The translations under genes and the position numbers were made by a program. Below, piece by piece: positions 466-54,827 of a stretch of DNA of 64,000 nt. Position 1 is the stretch's first letter. Every line of letters begins with the position of its first letter. This DNA comes from a virus. The notes under the pieces were generated by a model, which saw only the letters and a list, made by a program, of their open reading frames with translations, searched no databases and had not been told where the DNA came from. The DNA lies in IMG/VR virus record IMGVR_UViG_3300048583_000034, positions 35,181-99,180 of that record, one strand, 5' to 3'.

Positions 466-1011
466 ATGTATATGGAAGATTTATTCTTTATACAGAACGG
501 TGTCAGAAGACGAGCAAAAGAAATTGAATGTGGTCATTGTAAAAATAAATTTCTTACTAGATTAAACGCAGATACAAAATACTGTAGCAGAACTTGTAAT
601 GGTGCTAGTATCAAAACTTCGATAGAGTTGGAATGCTACGAATGCAAAAAGAAATTTGAACGAAATAAATATAAAGCCGAAAATGCCAGTAAACATAACT
701 TTCATTTCTGTTCTCGTTTATGTAAAGAAAAAGCACAGAGTTTAAAAGGTTCATGTATAGAAATAAGACCGCCCCATTATGGTGAAGGAAACGGGAAAAA
801 TTCATACAGAAAGTTGGCATTTAAATCTTTTGAGCATAAATGTAATAGGTGTGGATATAATAAAATTGTTGAAGTTTTACAGGTCCATCACAAAGATAAA
901 AATAGAGAACATAATGTAGTAGAAAATTTAGAGATATTATGTCCGACTTGTCACATGGAATTCCATTTCATTGATTCGAGTGGGCTATGGGGGATGGGAT
1001 TGCTGGGGTGA
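466..1011 (+). CDS. HNH homing endonuclease with Zn-finger N-terminus
   Basis: CxxC pairs; VHHKDKNREHN...LCPTCH; TAAATA at 461. Confidence 0.9.
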   Translation: MYMEDLFFIQNGVRRRAKEIECGHCKNKFLTRLNADTKYCSRTCNGASIKTSIELECYECKKKFERNKYKAENASKHNFHFCSRLCKEKAQSLKGSCIEIRPPHYGEGNGKNSYRKLAFKSFEHKCNRCGYNKIVEVLQVHHKDKNREHNVVENLEILCPTCHMEFHFIDSSGLWGMGLLG

Positions 1012-2064: not shown

Positions 2065-2796
2065 TTACCCCCAATACCCTCTGGGTGGTTTGGTCAACCC
2101 TAATTTCTTAATATGTTTCTCAACAGCTTTATCGCTAACCCCTAATTCCTTCGCTATCTTAGTTGTTGGTTTACTCCACAATAATGATTTTAATTCCTCT
2201 GAGGAGGGCCAAATTATCTTTTCTCTTTTGGGGCCACGGCATTTGTTGCAAGACGTTGATAGTTTATGTTTTTTCTCACCACAATCACATAAAGTAATTT
2301 TCTTATTTTTTTTGCCAGCATATGAAGAAGTTTGTGTATGACAATTTGGACAAAGAAAACACAAGTTTTCTAAACGGTTATCGTTCGATATTCCATTTAT
2401 ATGTTCCAGTTGTAATGATAGTTGTTCGCCTAACCAAGATCCATCGTTGGAACATTTAACACATTTATAATCTACCAATTCAAATTTTACTAAATAAAGT
2501 TTAAGATTATATCTATTTCTTTCAGAGTTTTCAACCAACCAATTTTTAATAAAGTCTTCTTTTGACAATTCTCTCGTAAGATTCGATGCGTCTATTCTGG
2601 AAAGAAAATGAGAAGTTTCTAGATTCAGCTCAGATACTCTCTTTTTAACAATATGGAAGTTGTTTCCTTTGTTCTGTAAACCAAAATAATTCAAAACATC
2701 TTTCATGGATTTACTAGTTGCAACTAATTCGATAAATTTTTCATCTTCTAATTTCCAAATTTTTGATCTCTTCGCTCTTGATTTTATGGTAAGCAT
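2065..2796 (-). CDS. HNH homing endonuclease with C-terminal HTH
   Basis: LQLEHINGISNDNRLENLCFLCPNCH; TAAATA upstream. Confidence 0.92.
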   Translation of the reverse strand: MLTIKSRAKRSKIWKLEDEKFIELVATSKSMKDVLNYFGLQNKGNNFHIVKKRVSELNLETSHFLSRIDASNLTRELSKEDFIKNWLVENSERNRYNLKLYLVKFELVDYKCVKCSNDGSWLGEQLSLQLEHINGISNDNRLENLCFLCPNCHTQTSSYAGKKNKKITLCDCGEKKHKLSTSCNKCRGPKREKIIWPSSEELKSLLWSKPTTKIAKELGVSDKAVEKHIKKLGLTKPPRGYWG

Positions 2797-2830
2797 ATGT
2801 ATATTTAGTTCATCAGTGCTAACTTGTCAA

Positions 2831-2849
2831 TAAAACACTAGAACATAAT
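2831..2849 (+). promoter_or_regulatory. phage early-type promoter AAACACTAG-N2-(T/C)ANAAT driving second tRNA block
   Basis: TAAAACACTAGAACATAAT 8 nt upstream of tRNA-Ser. Confidence 0.75.
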
Positions 2850-2857
2850 CAAATAAA

Positions 2858-2950
2858 GGGTGTGTGGTCGAGTCCGGTTTATGGCACCTCACTTGAAATG
2901 AGGCGATGGGGTTAGTATCCTGTCCGCGAGTTCAAATCTTGCCGCACCCG
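2858..2950 (+). tRNA. tRNA-Ser(TGA)
   Basis: CCTCA-CTTGAAA-TGAGG; long variable arm; G73. Confidence 0.92.
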
Positions 2951-2954
2951 CATT

Positions 2955-3170
2955 ATGCTTAACGATAATAATAAGATATATGGTGATCCAAGAAGTGAGG
3001 AATCTATGAAACTTATTTCTAGTTTTCTCATAAAACATCACACAGATAAAGATGAAAATTCTTTGTGGGTGAGATTTAATCAACTGATGGGCAAAGCACA
3101 CGATCAAGAATTGGATCATAGGGCAACATGGAACTCATATCTAAGAGTCGTAGAAGAAAAAATGAAATAA
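2955..3170 (+). CDS. hypothetical protein
   Basis: ORF filling gap between tRNAs. Confidence 0.6.
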   Translation: MLNDNNKIYGDPRSEESMKLISSFLIKHHTDKDENSLWVRFNQLMGKAHDQELDHRATWNSYLRVVEEKMK

Positions 3171-3171
3171 A

Positions 3172-3243
3172 GGGGAATTGTTGTAATTGGTAGCAAAACT
3201 GGGTTACATCCAGCTAGTAAGGGTTCAAGTCCTTTATTCCTCA
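3172..3243 (+). tRNA. tRNA-Val(TAC)
   Basis: CTGG-GTTACAT-CCAG arm; T-loop TTCAAGT. Confidence 0.85.
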
Positions 3244-3245
3244 CA

Positions 3246-3360
3246 AACTAATAACTAGAGAGATCGACTAATCCGGTCGAGAAAATTAACGGAAAAGCTC
3301 TGCGGACGATGGTGAACAGTTGGAATCCTGACGAAAATTTAATGCCCGCATTATTAGTTT
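3246..3360 (+). ncRNA. unknown structured RNA (~115 nt)
   Basis: Closing stem AAACTAATAA/TTATTAGTTT fills the gap between two tRNAs; internal hairpins. Confidence 0.55.
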
Positions 3361-3362
3361 AT

Positions 3363-3452
3363 GGAAGTTTGACAGAGTGGTAATGTGCCTACTTGGAAAG
3401 TAGAGGCCAACTTTAATAGGTTGCGGGAGTTCAAATCTCTCAACTTCCGCCA
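3363..3452 (+). tRNA. tRNA-Ser(GGA)
   Basis: CTAC-TTGGAAA-GTAG; long V arm; CCA. Confidence 0.92.
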
Positions 3453-3456
3453 CATT

Positions 3457-3541
3457 GGAAGATTGGCAGAGTGGTAATGCGTCTGGTTGCTAACCAGTAG
3501 CCTACCGAAAGGTAGCGGGAGTTCGATCCTCTCATCTTCCG
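3457..3541 (+). tRNA. tRNA-Ser(GCT)
   Basis: CTGG-TTGCTAA-CCAG; long V arm. Confidence 0.92.
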
Positions 3542-3570
3542 CATTGTTTTGTGATATGTTTAAAAATAAA

Positions 3571-3642
3571 AGGTCCATCGTATAATGGTTAATACAGAGG
3601 CTTCCAACCCCTCTGATCTGCGTTCGATTCGTAGTGGACCTG
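3571..3642 (+). tRNA. tRNA-Trp(CCA)
   Basis: Loop TT-CCA-AC; A1:U72, G73. Confidence 0.8.
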
Positions 3643-3645
3643 CTG

Positions 3646-3889
3646 TAAGATTATTAAGGATGTTGGCCTAAAGGTAGCAATCATATAATGAGTAACGAAT
3701 ATACAACAAGAAATTAACCTAGGTGTAGGGAGAAATCGGTAGAGTATATCGGGGAAACTGGCTAGAGTTTGATATGTTTGGTCCCCTTAGCCAAAGGGAC
3801 TTAATGATTATATAGATACACTGGAAAATAATCAGATGCATATCAAGACCCGCAGAGTTTTTGGTGTAATAACACGCTTTCTAATCTTA
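3646..3889 (+). ncRNA. 23S rRNA H42-H44 (L11/L10-binding, GTPase-associated centre)-like RNA with ~170-nt insertion
   Basis: AGGATGTTGGCCTAAAGGTAGCAATCATATAATGAGT ... GTGTAATAAC; closing stem TAAGATTA/TAATCTTA. Confidence 0.75.
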
Positions 3890-3894
3890 TTAAT

Positions 3895-3965
3895 GTCTCG
3901 TTGGTCAAATGGTAAGGCGGCGGATTGCAAATTCGCAGTTGGGGGTTCGATTCCCTCACGGGACT
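3895..3965 (+). tRNA. tRNA-Cys(GCA)
   Basis: GCGGA-TTGCAAA-TTCGC; U73. Confidence 0.9.
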
Positions 3966-3966
3966 C

Positions 3967-3994
3967 TTGACTTCTTAAAACACTAGGTTACAAT
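3967..3994 (+). promoter_or_regulatory. early-type promoter with -35-like TTGACT
   Basis: TTGACTTCTTAAAACACTAGG-T-TACAAT; first 21 nt identical at 19943. Confidence 0.75.
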
Positions 3995-4005
3995 ACGAAT
4001 TCAAT

Positions 4006-4464
4006 ATGAATCAGCAATTACTAGATCATGACTCTGAAACACTCAAGCATGTTAACTGTGTTCGAGAAAATTTATGGACTCTGATCAAAGAACTGGATAA
4101 GCGAGCACAAGTCCATGATGCTTCTAAATTTGAAGAACCTGAACGTAGTGTGTTTGCAGAGAATACTCCTAAGTTGGCAAGGACTGAATATGGCACACCA
4201 GAATATACAGAACTCCTAAAAGAAGTTAAGGTCGCCATTGATCATCATTATGCCAAGAACACTCACCATCCTGAGCATTGGCCAAATGGTATTGAGGATA
4301 TGGATCTTTTGGACTTGGTGGAAATGTTGTCGGACTGGGCTGCTGCAACTAAAAGGAACAAGAATGGGAACATTCATAAATCGATTGAACACAACCAAAC
4401 AAGATTTGGTATCAGTGAACAGTTATCGAAAATCTTTACCAACACAGTGAATAGATATTTTTAA
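4006..4464 (+). CDS. HD-like metal-binding protein (DUF5662-like)
   Basis: HDASK, HHYAKNTHHPEH, EMLSDW motifs. Confidence 0.7.
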   Translation: MNQQLLDHDSETLKHVNCVRENLWTLIKELDKRAQVHDASKFEEPERSVFAENTPKLARTEYGTPEYTELLKEVKVAIDHHYAKNTHHPEHWPNGIEDMDLLDLVEMLSDWAAATKRNKNGNIHKSIEHNQTRFGISEQLSKIFTNTVNRYF

Positions 4465-17506: not shown

Positions 17507-19030
17507 TTACCTTAAGAGATTCTTCAACATCTGAGAATAAGCTTCTTGGAACGGTCCAGAAAGAATCAACCCAGCAATCTCTTTCATCCTTTGCTCATCT
17601 GGATCTTCTCCAGCGTTCAACGTCTCTAGAACATATTCGTTTAGAGCGTCAGTTATTGAGCGAAAGTGTGTCTTATCCTTTTGCAAGACCGGAAACCAAG
17701 TCATAAGTTTAGCCCCATCGAAATATTGCTTTAACTTAAGTCTCGTTTCGTCTCTGGTTCCACCAATACGTTGAACCTTCTCTTCTGCTCTAGCAATCTT
17801 AGCGTTGAATTCATCAGCGTTAAAATGTGCTGGTCCTCTGGAAGCTTCGTCGCAATATCCAACAGCTTTCACAACTTCCCATGCTGGGTCGTTAATAAGA
17901 GCAGTCAGAGTCTTGATGTTAAGTTTATCCAGATTATGAATAAGCATATGCTTCTCCACAGCAAATAGAATATGTTTCTTATCTTGGGGAGAGAGTTCCG
18001 AGAACTTTAACGTCCTGAAGATCCTATCCACGATAGGAACACCTGCTCCATCATGACCGTGATAGTTCGAGAAGCCATTATCCTTACGTCCTCTCGTAGT
18101 CGCTTTACCAAAGTCATGGAAAAGAACGGCAAGGTTTATAACGGGATCAGTATATGGGGACACTTTCAAACATTCATAGATATGTCCCAGCACTTGAGCA
18201 TCACCTTCTGGATGATGTTGGGGATCATGATCGAATCCTTCCATAGCAGTAAACTCGGGAAGAATGTCGTGTAGAATGCCCGTCTCTTGTAACTTGTGTA
18301 GAAAGTTCGCCAGAGTCTTACCAGACTTCGCAGACTTATAAAACTCTTTGGAAATGCTTTCCTTGGAAATCGCCTCTGGATTAGATAACAAACTCTTTAG
18401 TTCGATAGCAGCTTGTTTGGTTCCTTCTTCAATATCGAAGCCCATCTTAGCAGCAAATCTAAAGACACGTAGAATTCTAGTGGCATCTTCCTGAAATCTC
18501 TTTTTTGGATCACCCACAGCACGCACCAGAGAGTTTTTCAAGTCCTCCAGACCACCCTGAAAGTCCACGATCTGTCCAGACGCATCCAGACCAAAGGAAT
18601 TGATCGTAAGGTCTCTACGCGCAGTGTCAGCTTCAAAGGAATCCGTCTCAGTGGAGACGTTGTTCTGTCTCCCGATGTCTCCCGAATCCGTTCTGAATTT
18701 CGCAAGGTCATACCAATAGTTTCCCCACTTAATTGTAAACACAGGTTGTAAATCATCCTTAGAGATATTTCTCATCTCATAAAGTTCTGATAACTTCTCC
18801 AGAGGAATATTGGTGGCCATATCCACATCATCAATTTCATTCCCCATAAGAAGATCTCTAGGAACCCCACCAACAATATAAATATCACCCTTTAGTTTTG
18901 ACTTGATATTCTTCATTAAATCAAGAGCAACTCTCAATTCTTCAGAAGATTCCACAGCTTTTATCCACTTGGCATCAAAGTCATCACCATACTTCTCTAG
19001 AAGCATATAGCGCAGTTTGTCGAATTTCAT
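17507..19030 (-). CDS. cca: class II tRNA nucleotidyltransferase (CCA-adding) with HD domain
   Basis: VGGVPRD..DVD, RRDLTINS, EDATRILR, HHPEG..H..HDFGK. Confidence 0.92.
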   Translation of the reverse strand: MKFDKLRYMLLEKYGDDFDAKWIKAVESSEELRVALDLMKNIKSKLKGDIYIVGGVPRDLLMGNEIDDVDMATNIPLEKLSELYEMRNISKDDLQPVFTIKWGNYWYDLAKFRTDSGDIGRQNNVSTETDSFEADTARRDLTINSFGLDASGQIVDFQGGLEDLKNSLVRAVGDPKKRFQEDATRILRVFRFAAKMGFDIEEGTKQAAIELKSLLSNPEAISKESISKEFYKSAKSGKTLANFLHKLQETGILHDILPEFTAMEGFDHDPQHHPEGDAQVLGHIYECLKVSPYTDPVINLAVLFHDFGKATTRGRKDNGFSNYHGHDGAGVPIVDRIFRTLKFSELSPQDKKHILFAVEKHMLIHNLDKLNIKTLTALINDPAWEVVKAVGYCDEASRGPAHFNADEFNAKIARAEEKVQRIGGTRDETRLKLKQYFDGAKLMTWFPVLQKDKTHFRSITDALNEYVLETLNAGEDPDEQRMKEIAGLILSGPFQEAYSQMLKNLLR

Positions 19031-24959: not shown

Positions 24960-25145
24960 TTAGTAAGAATAATCTTGTGAGAAGGAAGTGGTCTTACCAT
25001 TCTCACGAATGATTGGAGTAGCACGGGAAGAGAGTGAACGCTTGATGATCACACCGGAAGTTTTAGGCTTAGAAAAAGCCATTTGAACCCAACTGGTCCT
25101 CAACGTTTTCTGTGGAGCGCGGAAATTATTGTCTGGTTTCTTCAT
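24960..25145 (-). CDS. basic hypothetical protein
   Basis: Promoter-led ORF; hairpin 24883-24918 downstream. Confidence 0.7.
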   Translation of the reverse strand: MKKPDNNFRAPQKTLRTSWVQMAFSKPKTSGVIIKRSLSSRATPIIRENGKTTSFSQDYSY

Positions 25146-29678: not shown

Positions 29679-31205
29679 TCAATCTTCGCGTGAACGCTTC
29701 GAAGGGCAATCTGTGAGATGGATAAGAGTTTCCATAGCGCGGGTTGCCGCTACATACCTCAAATTTGTTTCCTGTACAAGCATCCAATCCAACTTAGCGT
29801 ATTTACTCGGAGAGAATTGAGCATCACCCAACCAATATACGGTTTTCCATTCAAGACCCTTAGCCTTATGAATAGAACTGAAGGTCACGATATCAGGAAC
29901 ATTACCGTCTTGCGAGTCAGTGAACATATCCTTGATTAGTTTCTCCAGAGAGTAAAGATCATCCTTACCAAGGGATTGGACACGCTCGATAAGAATAATC
30001 ATCGTATCCAGCTTATCTTCAAGCAGTTGCATCTTGGCATAAGAAGCTTTCTCAAACTCCTTATTAAAGAACTCAGTCAACTTGATGGTGAACTCAGTAA
30101 GATTGGAAACTTTCTTCCACTTCTTAACGAGCTTGATAAGATCGTTACCGATATCTTTACCTTCGATGCGGCATCCGATACCCTGACGAATAAGAGCAAA
30201 GGCAAGGGCAACATTAGGAGCATTGTTGCGGCAAAGAATCCCAACATTACGATCAAGAGTAAGAGTGCCAGCGATATCCACAAAACTTTGGTAAGTTTGT
30301 GAAGAGATGGAACCTTCACCATTACCCTCATAAGCTTGGATGTCAGGGAAGAATTGTTGAGCAGCTTCGATGATCTTCGATCCGCAACGATAGCAGATGG
30401 AGAGTGGAAGTTCCTCACAATCAAACATTTCACGAATGAGATTCATCGAATCATTCTCAGCACCAGTGAATCCCATGATTGCTTGTCCCTCGTCACCGAT
30501 GAAGATCATGCGACCATTAGGCTTGATAAGTTTACCAGCAAGAAGCTTGCGGCAAACATTAGTATCTTGAGCCTCATCGACCACAATCCAGTCATACTTT
30601 GCACCAGCAAGGTTATAGATAAGTGGGAGATATTGCATATCATCAAAGTCGATGACCTTGACATCCAGATTGGAATCTTTGAGAACCAACTTGGAAACTT
30701 CGATGATTTCATCATAAGTGCAATCCGACTCCAGAGAGATATCATGATGGGTGATGATTTGAAGCCATGCTTCATTGTCATCAATAGAAGTTTGGCCCTT
30801 AACACCGAAAGCATTTTGCTTGGCAAGACTTACAAGCTTGGCGATAAAGTTACGTGCCTTTTCCAGATCAGGAGTATTACAGAACTTTGCAGTCAACCAG
30901 AACACTTTGGAACCATCAACTTTATGATAACCCTTGGACTTATAGAGCATACCTTTACCAGCAGCATGGAAAGTCGATGCTTGGATATTGGGAACTCCCA
31001 TACGGGAAAGCTTATCTTTAAGCTGATAAGCAGCTTTATTACCGAAAGCCATCATAAGACCATCGCCTCGCATGAATTGCGAACAATGAACCATTGTGGA
31101 AGTCTTACCAGAACCAGCACGGGCCGGGATAAGAAGATTATTCTTTTCGGGGGTAGGATTACATACCCAAGCTTCGATAGCTAATTGTTGTGTGGATAGT
31201 TGCAT
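29679..31205 (-). CDS. UvrD/Rep-like SF1 helicase
   Basis: ARAGSGKT, VDEAQD, GDEGQAI, HKAKGLEW, YVAATRA. Confidence 0.92.
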   Translation of the reverse strand: MQLSTQQLAIEAWVCNPTPEKNNLLIPARAGSGKTSTMVHCSQFMRGDGLMMAFGNKAAYQLKDKLSRMGVPNIQASTFHAAGKGMLYKSKGYHKVDGSKVFWLTAKFCNTPDLEKARNFIAKLVSLAKQNAFGVKGQTSIDDNEAWLQIITHHDISLESDCTYDEIIEVSKLVLKDSNLDVKVIDFDDMQYLPLIYNLAGAKYDWIVVDEAQDTNVCRKLLAGKLIKPNGRMIFIGDEGQAIMGFTGAENDSMNLIREMFDCEELPLSICYRCGSKIIEAAQQFFPDIQAYEGNGEGSISSQTYQSFVDIAGTLTLDRNVGILCRNNAPNVALAFALIRQGIGCRIEGKDIGNDLIKLVKKWKKVSNLTEFTIKLTEFFNKEFEKASYAKMQLLEDKLDTMIILIERVQSLGKDDLYSLEKLIKDMFTDSQDGNVPDIVTFSSIHKAKGLEWKTVYWLGDAQFSPSKYAKLDWMLVQETNLRYVAATRAMETLIHLTDCPSKRSRED

Positions 31206-37820: not shown

Positions 37821-37910
37821 TGGTTCATGTGAGGAGAATTGAACTCCCGTATACCTTGTAAGGGCTTTCCATTTATAAAACAGAGACTCTGACCACTGAG
37901 TTACACATGA
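37821..37910 (-). tRNA. tRNA with TAT anticodon (Ile) and long variable arm
   Basis: TCTGT-TTTATAA-ATGGA; 19-nt V region with CCTT/AAGG stem; CCA. Confidence 0.75.
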
Positions 37911-37917
37911 CATTTTG

Positions 37918-38025
37918 TGGGACCGCTTGGATTCGAACCAAGGACCAAGGGTTTATTTTAAACTATCTCAATTTAATGCGATAGCTCCAAAGAGACCCCT
38001 GCTCTAACCACTGAGCTACAATCCC
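37918..38025 (-). tRNA. tRNA-Ile2/Met(CAT) or Lys(CTT) with 35-nt hairpin insertion in anticodon loop
   Basis: Intact acceptor, D and T arms; 42-nt anticodon loop. Confidence 0.75.
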
Positions 38026-38287
38026 TTTAATATCAGTTAACTCGTATTCGTGTCATACGACTATATTACTCTAGTGTTTAAAGAATCCACGTTCAACCAT
38101 TTTACATGATCGAATCTCTTTAAACCCATCTGATCGTTTCCAATCGCGAACAGTAGCGCCACCACCCAGAGGTGATAGTTCTACTTTACCATCACACACA
38201 TAACAATAATCCCAGTGAATAGGATGATCTTCTGGTAGGATTTCTTCTCCTTCTAATATGCCTTCGAGAATCATATGATTATTATTT

Positions 38288-38399
38288 TGGTATGCGCGGT
38301 GGGACTCGAACCCACAGATTACAGATTTTTTGGAATGGATTCTAATTAAGTATCCACTCGGAAAAAGTCTGCTGCCTATACCAATTCGGCTACGCGCAC
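38288..38399 (-). tRNA. tRNA-Leu(TAA) with 35-nt hairpin insertion in anticodon loop
   Basis: GCCGAATTGGTATAGGCAGCAGACTT[35 nt]AAAATCTG; CCA. Confidence 0.8.
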
Positions 38400-53243: not shown

Positions 53244-54827
53244 TTAGAAGTTCTTTGCGACTTTATCGCGAATCTCTTGAAGAGTCCAGTCCTTTTTCAG
53301 AACTCCATTAGCAAAGACTTGCACGAATGCACAATTCTTAACTTCATCCCAAGTAGCTTGATCCTTCATAGTGAAGATGCCATCAGCATCTTCATACACA
53401 GCAATCAAACCCTTAGCACTCTTCTTCAAACCATCATCGGTCTTAGGATCTTTGAAGATCTCAATACCTTTACGTTCGCCATCAACAAGAACTTCACCAT
53501 ATGTCGATTTGACAGCGAATCCATGAGTATCACGGGTGATGATAGCATCTTTATCGATAGCACCTTGATAAGTAAAGCTTCCGATACCATAGACAAGGTT
53601 TGTCGATGCGAATCCTTTAGCTTCCAAACGTTCACAAATTTGTGTGGCACGTTCCAAGGTAATACTATCACCATAAATTGCACCGATATGGCTATCGAGT
53701 TGTTTATAACCCTTACTGGTAGTAGTTCCACCAAAGATTTCCCAGAGACATACGATCATGCCCTTGACTTCATCTTCAGTAAGTTGTTTACCAGTAGATT
53801 TATCATAGAGATTACCGTCTCGAAGTCTACCAACTTCATCTGGCATATAACCAGTAACAATCTTCACTGGATCTCCACTATCAGGACGAATGACAACCTT
53901 GCCATCACGGGCCATGATAACATCTTTCAATGATGTAAGAATACCACCGCTAGGTGTAATCACATGCCAAAAATCATAAGTGTCGCTAACTAGACTAACA
54001 ATTCCACCGGGATAAACTTCAGTGATCATCCTCAAGAAATATGCAAAGTCATCAGCTTTACCATTTTCATCATAAGTAGATCCCATACAAGCGACCGAGT
54101 GTTCCGATGCTGCCACACTACCACCAACAAGTTCCTTATCGGAATCTGCATTATAGTATTGTTCCAAGAAATCAATAGCAGGAACAGTATCAGTTCCAGC
54201 AAAACTCAGCAAGTGAGCAGCACCACTCATAACAGCAGCTTCATAACCAAAGTGTCCACGGAAACTGAAGTCATGACCTTGCCATGGCACAAACTCAATC
54301 ATTTCAGGATTGGTCTTATTAGCCCACTCATTAAGAATCTTGCGATACATAAGAGCAGTGGTGGCACTTGTGCAAGTTCCCCAAGTCGATGCCGAGATAA
54401 TAGTTTCAATAGCATTGGTCAACCAGAAGAAACGATCATCAGTATTCCACATTACAAACATCGGAACACGAAGATCTACATTAGAACCTTCAGGCAATGC
54501 CCAAATTTCAAGTGGAAGATGTCCGAGAGCATGAAGATCACGAATATGTTGATCACCAATAGCATTAGGTCCAAGATAGTTATTGAGACGGCGTGTATAA
54601 CGCTTAACAACAACTTCGATGTCTTGAGAGAAGAAATCTCTATCCCAATCACCCATAAGGTGTTTCTTGATAAAGGCTTGAAGTCCAAACTTGATAACTT
54701 TCTTCAGACCTTTAACACGACTGCCACGGGCAGTCAAATTACTAAAGACCAAGAGACAGTTACTTGGATATTGGCGGCGATGGTCACATTTGTAACCATC
54801 ATAGGTTAGTTCAGGATTAATTGTCAT
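53244..54827 (-). CDS. nadV: nicotinamide phosphoribosyltransferase-like (Namat/NARP1 candidate)
   Basis: DGYK..H..QYP, HDFSFRG, ASEHSV, SDTYD, IRPDSG, YGDSIT, KKSAKG. Confidence 0.92.
   Translation of the reverse strand: MTINPELTYDGYKCDHRRQYPSNCLLVFSNLTARGSRVKGLKKVIKFGLQAFIKKHLMGDWDRDFFSQDIEVVVKRYTRRLNNYLGPNAIGDQHIRDLHALGHLPLEIWALPEGSNVDLRVPMFVMWNTDDRFFWLTNAIETIISASTWGTCTSATTALMYRKILNEWANKTNPEMIEFVPWQGHDFSFRGHFGYEAAVMSGAAHLLSFAGTDTVPAIDFLEQYYNADSDKELVGGSVAASEHSVACMGSTYDENGKADDFAYFLRMITEVYPGGIVSLVSDTYDFWHVITPSGGILTSLKDVIMARDGKVVIRPDSGDPVKIVTGYMPDEVGRLRDGNLYDKSTGKQLTEDEVKGMIVCLWEIFGGTTTSKGYKQLDSHIGAIYGDSITLERATQICERLEAKGFASTNLVYGIGSFTYQGAIDKDAIITRDTHGFAVKSTYGEVLVDGERKGIEIFKDPKTDDGLKKSAKGLIAVYEDADGIFTMKDQATWDEVKNCAFVQVFANGVLKKDWTLQEIRDKVAKNF

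Follow-up and report, generated by a model that had tools for sequence, protein, structure and literature searches.

A phage RNA nested in a tRNA array that copies the uL11-binding domain of 23S rRNA and carries a structured insert

The RNA element described here occupies 3646-3889 on the plus strand of the window, by which we mean the whole 64-kb stretch of DNA that was analysed. It is a self-closed RNA of an uncultured freshwater phage, placed between two tRNA genes. The 99-kb IMG/VR virus record that is the source of the window is estimated to be 48% complete, and no LSU rRNA gene was found in it. The element starts 2 nt after the upstream tRNA (3571..3643, plus strand, without an encoded CCA) and ends 5 nt before a tRNA-Cys(GCA) (3895..3966, plus strand). 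An earlier reading of the locus made from the sequence alone, here called the sequence-only reading, had named these neighbors tRNA-Trp and tRNA-Cys. The tRNA-Cys is correct, and the tRNA-Trp is favored, although ARAGORN calls that gene Gly(UCC). In the Rfam alignment, its anticodon loop is UUCCAAC, which makes it Trp(CCA). It is probably tRNA-Trp because it has A1-U72 and G73, because a separate tRNA-Gly(UCC) lies upstream in the array, and because there is no other tRNA-Trp among the 26 tRNAs. Two open reading frames at 3719-3841 (minus strand) and 3836-3970 (plus strand) were rejected as genes; the second traverses the tRNA-Cys.

In the window, 45 copies of the nonamer AAACACTAG are present where 0.45 would be expected, for example at 2833, 3978 and 5271. 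Its copies are mostly on the minus strand in the 19-64 kb region, each 2 nt before a -10-like hexamer, and it looks like a phage-specific promoter element. One plus-strand box, at 2833..2841, is upstream of a tRNA-Ser at 2858. The next one on that strand, at 3978, is beyond the tRNA-Cys, so that the two bracket six tRNAs and the element; the downstream order is tRNA-Cys, promoter and a DUF5662 gene. No terminator-like site was found in 2700-4100. To judge from this layout, the box at 2833 is likely the start of a transcription unit in which the element is co-transcribed with the tRNAs. The claim that the RNA would be excised is plausible, given that the element is nested 2 nt and 5 nt from tRNAs whose processing could release it. 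Among 84 members of the family described below, a tRNA on the same strand lies within 3 kb in 60 and within 20 nt in 30. The neighboring tRNAs are co-oriented with the element in 407 of 407 cases.

The same array contains an amber suppressor-type tRNA(CUA) upstream of the window, at L194 3514-3585 (G000:C1:31513-31584), which heads a further 10-tRNA stretch. A tRNA(CUA) is nearby in 8 of the 84 member loci. The window phage does not look globally TAG-recoded. An HNH endonuclease gene (466-1011, plus strand) sits in the array between tRNA-Asp and tRNA-Ala and may be a homing element. Elsewhere, at 17507-19030 on the minus strand, the window encodes a 507-aa protein with a PolyA_pol head domain of the CCA-adding/nucleotidyltransferase type, which is relevant because array tRNAs such as that at 3571-3643 lack an encoded CCA.

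Numbered against the E. coli rrlH 23S rRNA, G3658 of the element is G1055 and U3693 is 1090, while G3864 is G1091 and C3877 is C1104. The two ends of the RNA correspond to H43, the 1082-1086 hairpin and H44 of the GTPase-associated center (GAC), with a 166-nt structured insert between them. The 5′ half of the GAC copy (3658..3693, 23S 1055-1090) contains H43 (3660-3684, with the loop at 3668-3676, A1067 at 3670 and U1072 at 3675), the 1082-1086 hairpin (3685-3689, with an A-U pair) and the 5′ strand of H44, GAGU (3690-3693). The insert, of a type we call class II, runs from 3694 to 3859, between 1090 and 1091. It is joined to upper H44 by a UUUG linker (3860..3863) that is conserved in the family. 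The 3′ half (3864..3877, 23S 1091-1104) supplies a G-C and a U-A pair, the hexaloop GUAAUA (A1095 at 3868) and then ACACGC. In place of H42 there is a closing stem, defined by the sequence and by covariance model alignment, with its 5′ strand at 3646..3657 and its 3′ strand at 3878..3889; all of these parts are on the plus strand. The strings quoted in the sequence-only reading are where it put them (AGGATG...GAGT at 3657-3693 and GT-GTAATA-AC at 3864-3873), and its closing pairing of TAAGATTA (3646-3653) with TAATCTTA (3882-3889) is present. To this are added pairs between 3656-3657 and 3878-3879, with TT/TC as an internal mismatch.

The likeness to 23S is well beyond chance in the 5′ half, where there are 27 identities in 34 positions to E. 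coli 1055-1088, a local score reached by none of 500 shuffles. A degenerate H43 pattern with up to three mismatches occurs once in the 64 kb against zero expected from shuffles. The 3′ half alone is too short for sequence significance and is validated by the family covariance model. In the H43 stem (1057-1064/1074-1081), six of eight pairs are standard, U1060.U1078 is kept, and there is one G1062.A1076 mismatch. The H44 region has A1082-U1086, G1087-C1102, U1090-A1101, the G-C and U-A pairs, and the loop GUAAUA with G1093.A1098. A C-G to U-A change in H44 had been pointed out as compensatory. It is real, and position 1072 is correspondingly a U, which preserves the tertiary base triple: U3675 (1072) goes with U3865-A3872 (1092-1099) in the U/U-A form. 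Features peculiar to the window include G1062.A1076 (5 of 75 members), G1103 (1 of 75), A1082-U1086 (10 of 75) and C1065. A thermodynamic fold of the whole RNA was not better than those of shuffles (z -0.73) and mis-paired H43, a calculation that is uninformative for a domain with tertiary structure.

Inserts in the family range from 41 to 365 nt. Those of the window's class start with NNC-GA(G/A) and end with GACCC-NN-AGAG-NN. Across 16 class II members, P1, P3 and P4 covary. P1 (3694-3696/3857-3859) is AAC/GUU in the window and has seven different complementary triplets among the 16, in which the adjoining tandem G.A (3697-98/3855-56) is conserved. P3 (3750-3753/3849-3852) changes from AGGG/CCCU to CGGG/CCCG in the window and in L043, and P4 (3769-3776/3839-3846) is an 8-bp helix of different sequence in almost every class II member. 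P2 (3699-3704/3744-3749), hairpin A (3781-3800) and hairpin B (3805-3834) are predictions only. All of the insert helices that had been named at the outset are present, these being P4 and the stems 3781-3785/3796-3800 and 3805-3811/3828-3834. Nothing in the window insert is significantly similar to 23S. A loop in hairpin B (AGAUAC-ACU-GGAAA) bears only a vague resemblance to the sarcin-ricin loop (SRL), and we claim no likeness. A sarcin-ricin-type hairpin, AGUACGAGAGGA, is found in the insert of six larger members (L018, L050, L073, L082, L097 and L112), identical in 13 of 13 positions to 23S 2653-2665, and is absent from the window element. Another insert class shares a 3′ motif, CACCCCGUAACUGGUAAGG, shortly upstream of the UUUG linker (L003, L026, L068, L074, L076, L078, L090, L110, L133 and L161). 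Two class II members, L044 and L046, have a second insert in the 3′ strand of H43, after 1077, and score 55-56 bits with the model R1 described below, from which it appears that the scaffold tolerates grafts at more than one site.

The family was recovered by scanning IMG/VR with the H43 pattern, which gave 30 loci. The genuine 23S continuation is present in only three of these. The others read ...AAAGAGU and then diverge, and all resume at UUUGG(C/U)GUAAYA(G/A)CACAC. Two added patterns, one for the 3′ half and one for the insert end, gave many more members, with 5′ halves that had not been selected for. Parsing left at least 84 distinct members in IMG/VR, 75 of them in register without core indels, and the true size of the family exceeds this count. 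The UUUG linker is in every 5′-pattern member that passed the parser, the regular expression of which required T[TA][TAG]G; the single member that it missed, L010, has UUUA. The traits of the family are all in the window, namely an insert exactly between 1090 and 1091, UUUG after it, A1101, and a closing stem adjoining G1055-C1104. Among the rejected candidates, the pattern AGCAATCATATAATGAGT gave, besides the known member L029, chance matches in coding sequences (L032-L034), and L037 is a chance match in an AT-rich giant-virus contig. Two viral contigs have the class II 3′ part, consisting of the insert end, UUUG and the H44 loop (L040, 1702-1788, minus strand; L042, 794-979, plus strand). 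The tail of L040 is much like that of the window. Both are without a recognizable H43 half, score 16-18 bits with R1, and may be truncated or decaying copies.

The covariance model R1 was built from 28 members, all with other insert classes and with the window excluded. It matches the window at 3648-3887 on the plus strand with 64.9 bits and an E value of 3.8e-15, over model positions 1-144 of 144, and this is the only full match in the 99-kb record. On E. coli 23S, it picks out exactly the GAC (1045-1114, 57.5 bits) with the insert positions deleted, and on three other 23S sequences, it picks the GAC at 45-62 bits. Run over 151 Bacillota genomes, R1 brought up the rrn copies and a single copy of the phage type (G050, already found). 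R1 matches of 140-144 nt in two Bacillota genomes had the appearance of 23S with a GAC insert; G155 is ordinary 23S with an extended alignment, and the other is G117. A 19-nt hairpin in the window, UAGGCUUAGAAAAAGCCAU (25064-25082, plus strand), looks like the H43 loop and scores 13.9 bits with R1 (E 0.05); it is probably due to chance, with ordinary sequence around it and no other GAC parts.

Several cultured phages have the same RNA, unannotated: Cronobacter GAP32, Xanthomonas XbC2 and XaC1, Erwinia Kaldavass and pEa_SNUABM phages, Pectobacterium CBB, Serratia BF, Acinetobacter ME3 and Yersinia fHe-Yen9-04. It is also present in prophage-like parts of bacterial assemblies, where genuine family members account for 14 of the 20 exact matches to one 3′ variant. 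For one isolate, comparison of the prophage copy with the GAC of the host itself shows 2 differences in 36 core positions. Near-identical relatives of the window element were found in DNA contigs of three freshwater metagenome runs from two studies. No RNA run was among the public runs listed as containing it, which does not bear on whether it is expressed. Close relatives differ by four substitutions, all in the insert; two of these change A-U to G.U in P4 and hairpin B, and the other two are in the loop of hairpin B.

Searches of the usual kind do not reach the family easily. Over the element, Rfam gave no family at the gathering threshold or at E<=10, only the flanking tRNAs and chance-level matches. 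The Rfam 15 covariance models of group I and II introns, GOLLD, ROOL and tmRNA gave no match in the window element at E up to 10, and the Rfam LSU model reached the 5′ half of a relative weakly (E 0.09). BLAST of the window element against the phage collection and E. coli genomes gave no match, since the core does not offer enough length and the insert has diverged too far. A full-text literature search did not find a description of the family. A 2023 screen of IMG/VR for structured RNAs reported no rRNA overlap (PMC10690425). The phage GAC-copy RNAs make up a large family that has no Rfam model and, in the literature searched, no description.

The fold of the copied domain is under selection across the family. 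In the 75 in-register members, pair 1058-1080 is UA in 45, GC in 16, AU in 11, CG in 2 and UG in 1; 1057-1081 is AU in 71 and CG in 4; 1082-1086 is UA in 49, CG in 15 and AU in 10; and 1092-1099 is CG in 48, UA in 20 and UG in 7. H43 pairs are 93-100% standard across the family, with compensatory changes, and the noncanonical pairs are kept, U1060.U1078 in 71 of 75 and G1093.A1098 in all 75. The closing stem covaries as well. Its first eight positions beyond G1055-C1104 are paired in 75-100% of the 75 members, with three to six pair types each. The base triple 1072/(1092-1099), attributed to Conn, Gutell and Draper 1998, reportedly covaries in rRNA (C with C-G, U with U-A). In the phage RNAs, C at 1072 accompanies C-G in 48 members and U accompanies U-A or U.G in 27, a concordance of 75 out of 75. 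In the 28-member alignment, 95.2% of the cells are paired versus 70% in shuffles (reached in 0 of 500) and 35-55% when the partners are slid, and the covariation score is 0.669 versus 0.171. Covariation among homologs was one of the checks that the sequence-only reading had named, and it bears out the helices and the triple alike. That reading's central claim is supported: the element is an RNA copy of the H43/H44 uL11-binding domain that stands by itself, and a folded insert has been grafted into it.

Real 23S is much less variable. The 23S of 29 genomes has only nine distinct GAC sequences, and A1067, G1068, C1072/C1092-G1099, U1082-A1086 and U1101 are invariant in that sample. The phage copies thus evolve faster, with the fold kept by compensation. 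What sets the family apart from rRNA is A1101, which pairs with U1090 at the junction, together with the insert and the UUUG linker. A1067 is changed to G in 15 of the 55 members found through the 3′ patterns, so the tip that contacts factors and tRNA is under looser constraint than on the ribosome. In the H44 loop, G1093, U1094, A1095 and A1098 are invariant in 20 members from the 5′ pattern, and 1096 and 1097 vary. A purine at 1061 stabilizes the isolated GAC domain. One third of the members have one, which would fit selection for folding off the ribosome. H42-like flanks are kept only by L017 and L025.

Compared with the bacterial 23S GAC (the tip of H42, H43 and H44; 1051-1108), the window RNA has the same helices, the same U1060.U1078 and G1093.A1098 pairs, the GUAAUA loop, and the 1072/(1092-1099) triple in its U/U-A form, and the family model and real 23S recognize each other. 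It differs in being free-standing, phage-encoded, flanked by tRNAs and outside any rRNA. The H42/kink-turn 42 stalk, the uL10 site, is replaced by an arbitrary stem. The phage copies have 41-365 nt of insert and UUUG between 1090 and 1091 (166 nt of insert in the window), have A for U1101, and vary far more in sequence, including at A1067. The mRNA leaders of r-proteins such as L10 and L1, which serve autogenous control, are likewise off-ribosome RNAs that imitate the rRNA site of an r-protein. They resemble rRNA only loosely and act in cis upstream of r-protein genes, whereas the phage element is a near-exact rRNA copy and a separate gene of the stable-RNA type in a tRNA array. No r-protein gene lies nearby or in 50 carrier records, and the idea that the RNA affects r-protein autoregulation is left with no basis. 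The T4 species 1 and 2 RNAs and the anti-defense phage tRNAs share its genomic niche and likely its maturation route, and by analogy with such tRNA-cluster RNAs, a counter-host role is plausible; those RNAs, however, are tRNAs or small RNAs without rRNA likeness. We know of no stable RNA from a phage tRNA cluster that copies a functional center of rRNA. GOLLD and ROOL are also structured noncoding RNAs often found near tRNAs in phages, and 6S RNA and tmRNA also act by imitating another nucleic acid. The window element differs from all four in that the thing imitated is an rRNA domain, and it matches no Rfam model at E up to 10.

As to a binding partner, the 58-nt 1051-1108 fragment of 23S is an autonomous uL11- and thiostrepton-binding domain. 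Since the uL11 domain is completely copied and H42 is not, binding of uL11 by the window RNA is likely, to judge from the sequence. Binding of uL10-L12, which had also been proposed, is unlikely, because a generic stem that covaries takes the place of H42, where uL10 mainly binds. In the 50 carrier records, of which 31 are 90% complete or better, we found no genes for uL11, uL10, an EF-type GTPase or RelA/SpoT, and for bL12, only one sub-threshold bL12-like stretch. Any partner would thus be host-made.

The reading we favor, at slightly better than an even chance, is that the RNA matures as tRNAs do and imitates the uL11 site away from the ribosome, where it would bind the uL11 of the host and serve as a sponge or decoy. 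It takes the homology, the conserved fold, the family and the genomic context as its footing, and from these proposes processing, binding and a decoy role. The promoter box at 2833 would probably drive one transcript that includes the element and the tRNAs around it. Nucleases of tRNA processing would free an RNA of about 250 nt (3644-3894), the 3′ end of which would be set by the RNase P cut at the 5′ end of tRNA-Cys. The ends of the RNA would join, closed by the generic stem, and take up the GAC tertiary fold of H43, the 1082-1086 hairpin and H44, with the insert leaving H44 between 1090 and 1091 as a separate multihelix domain. The folded core would bind host uL11 off the ribosome, and the RNA or the RNA-uL11 particle would imitate the ribosomal factor-docking site. 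As a sponge or decoy, it would divert uL11, or the usual recognizer of the site, to the benefit of phage translation. Several points count against this. G1062.A1076 and G1103 in the window could weaken H43 or the junction, and the A1067 tip is less constrained than in rRNA. A sponge would have to affect uL11 that already sits in ribosomes, and to do so within a single infection cycle. The insert makes up more than half of the RNA, yet the reading gives it no role, and the thermodynamic fold of the whole RNA does not stand out from shuffles.

A more specific form of the sponge can be drawn from the suppressor tRNA. Limiting L11 reportedly raises read-through of UAG. RF1 domain 1 touches the N-terminal domain of uL11 (PMC3677378), and this contact, the reported effect of L11 limitation and the presence of tRNA(CUA) here and near 8 of 84 members are the grounds for supposing that the sponge, by limiting free uL11 or by presenting its N-terminal domain off the ribosome, weakens RF1 termination at UAG. 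It would thereby aid the tRNA(CUA) of the array and blunt uL11-dependent activation of RelA. We consider this version distinctly unlikely. The same RF1 contact and the same tRNA(CUA), in the window phage's array and near the 8 loci, can also be claimed for a mimic of the factor site that directly engages one of the host factors (a translational GTPase, RelA, or RF1 by way of the uL11 N-terminal domain), with elongation, termination or the stringent response retuned as a result. On the ribosome, the factor-binding site is made up of the GAC and the SRL, and six large class II members have both. On the other side, A1067 varies in the family, the SRL is absent from most members, including the window, most carrier loci have no suppressor tRNA, and there is no geometric support for an insert reaching the ribosomal position of the SRL. 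On this evidence, we think such a mimic unlikely.

The SRL copies of the larger members also bear on a protective role, the SRL being another classic toxin target. By that account, the RNA is an abundant free decoy that spares the ribosomes from a toxin or antibiotic attacking the GAC, such as an ADP-ribosyltransferase, a nuclease or a thiopeptide. We know of no anti-phage defense system that targets the GAC, which counts against it, and a stoichiometric decoy has to outcompete tens of thousands of ribosomes. The invariance of G1093, U1094, A1095 and A1098 in the 20 5′-pattern members preserves the framework of the H44 loop; loop positions 1096 and 1097 vary, however, and the window member has no SRL copy. 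Tre23, a toxin of bacterial origin, modifies 23S H44 by ADP-ribosylation at 1095-1098 and blocks the GTPase activity of EF-G (PMC8661411), and phage tRNA arrays are known sites of RNA-level counter-defense. A protective decoy is in our estimation unlikely. The tight and consistent nesting among co-oriented tRNAs, along with the phage-encoded nucleotidyltransferase of the CCA-adding type, could instead mean that the element serves the tRNA array itself, as a structured spacer that guides processing or as a platform for tRNA elbows like the GAC on the ribosome, with no role as a uL11 site. Since the 3 kb around the element contain no tRNA in 24 of 84 loci (some of which are incomplete), and a spacer needs neither the exact GAC tertiary triple nor the noncanonical pairs, we hold this to be very unlikely. 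Finally, the element might be a functionless relic, either a captured fragment of host 23S or the remnant of an intron or intervening sequence with flanking pieces of exon. Introns are known to insert in the H44 region of organelle and fungal LSU rRNA, the core is nearly identical to real 23S (with 2 of 36 positions different between a prophage copy and the host GAC), and L017 and L025 retain more of the H42-like flanks. Against this, the family counts at least 84 distinct members in phages of very different kinds; these show compensatory changes, their closing stem covaries, and the site of the insert is fixed. The family-specific A1101 and UUUG linker are lacking in rRNA, and no Rfam intron or other family matches, even with E values up to 10 allowed. 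A relic is strongly disfavored by the covariation and by these features of the family, and we rate it as extremely improbable.

The GAC is among the most conserved functional centers of the ribosome, and imitation of an rRNA domain in trans by a virus is, to our knowledge, without precedent. If the uL11-decoy reading is true, phages of many lineages and habitats, cultured jumbo phages included, make an autonomously folding stand-alone copy of the GAC. It would represent a previously unnoticed layer of phage translation takeover or of RNA-level counter-defense, as well as an evolvable scaffold, provided by nature, that has the uL11/thiostrepton domain as its base. Culturable phage-host pairs in which this RNA occurs make the idea open to direct testing.

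Other parts of the window encode a NAMPT/NAPRTase-like gene (53244-54827) and a UvrD-type helicase (29679-31205). There are also unusual tRNAs on the minus strand at 37824-38399, where Rfam tRNA matches of 108-109 nt are found at 37918-38025 and 38291-38399, adjoined by a tRNA-Ile(UAU) of 87-90 nt at 37821-37910. The tRNAs of this segment appear to carry inserts of about 35 nt, which may be introns.
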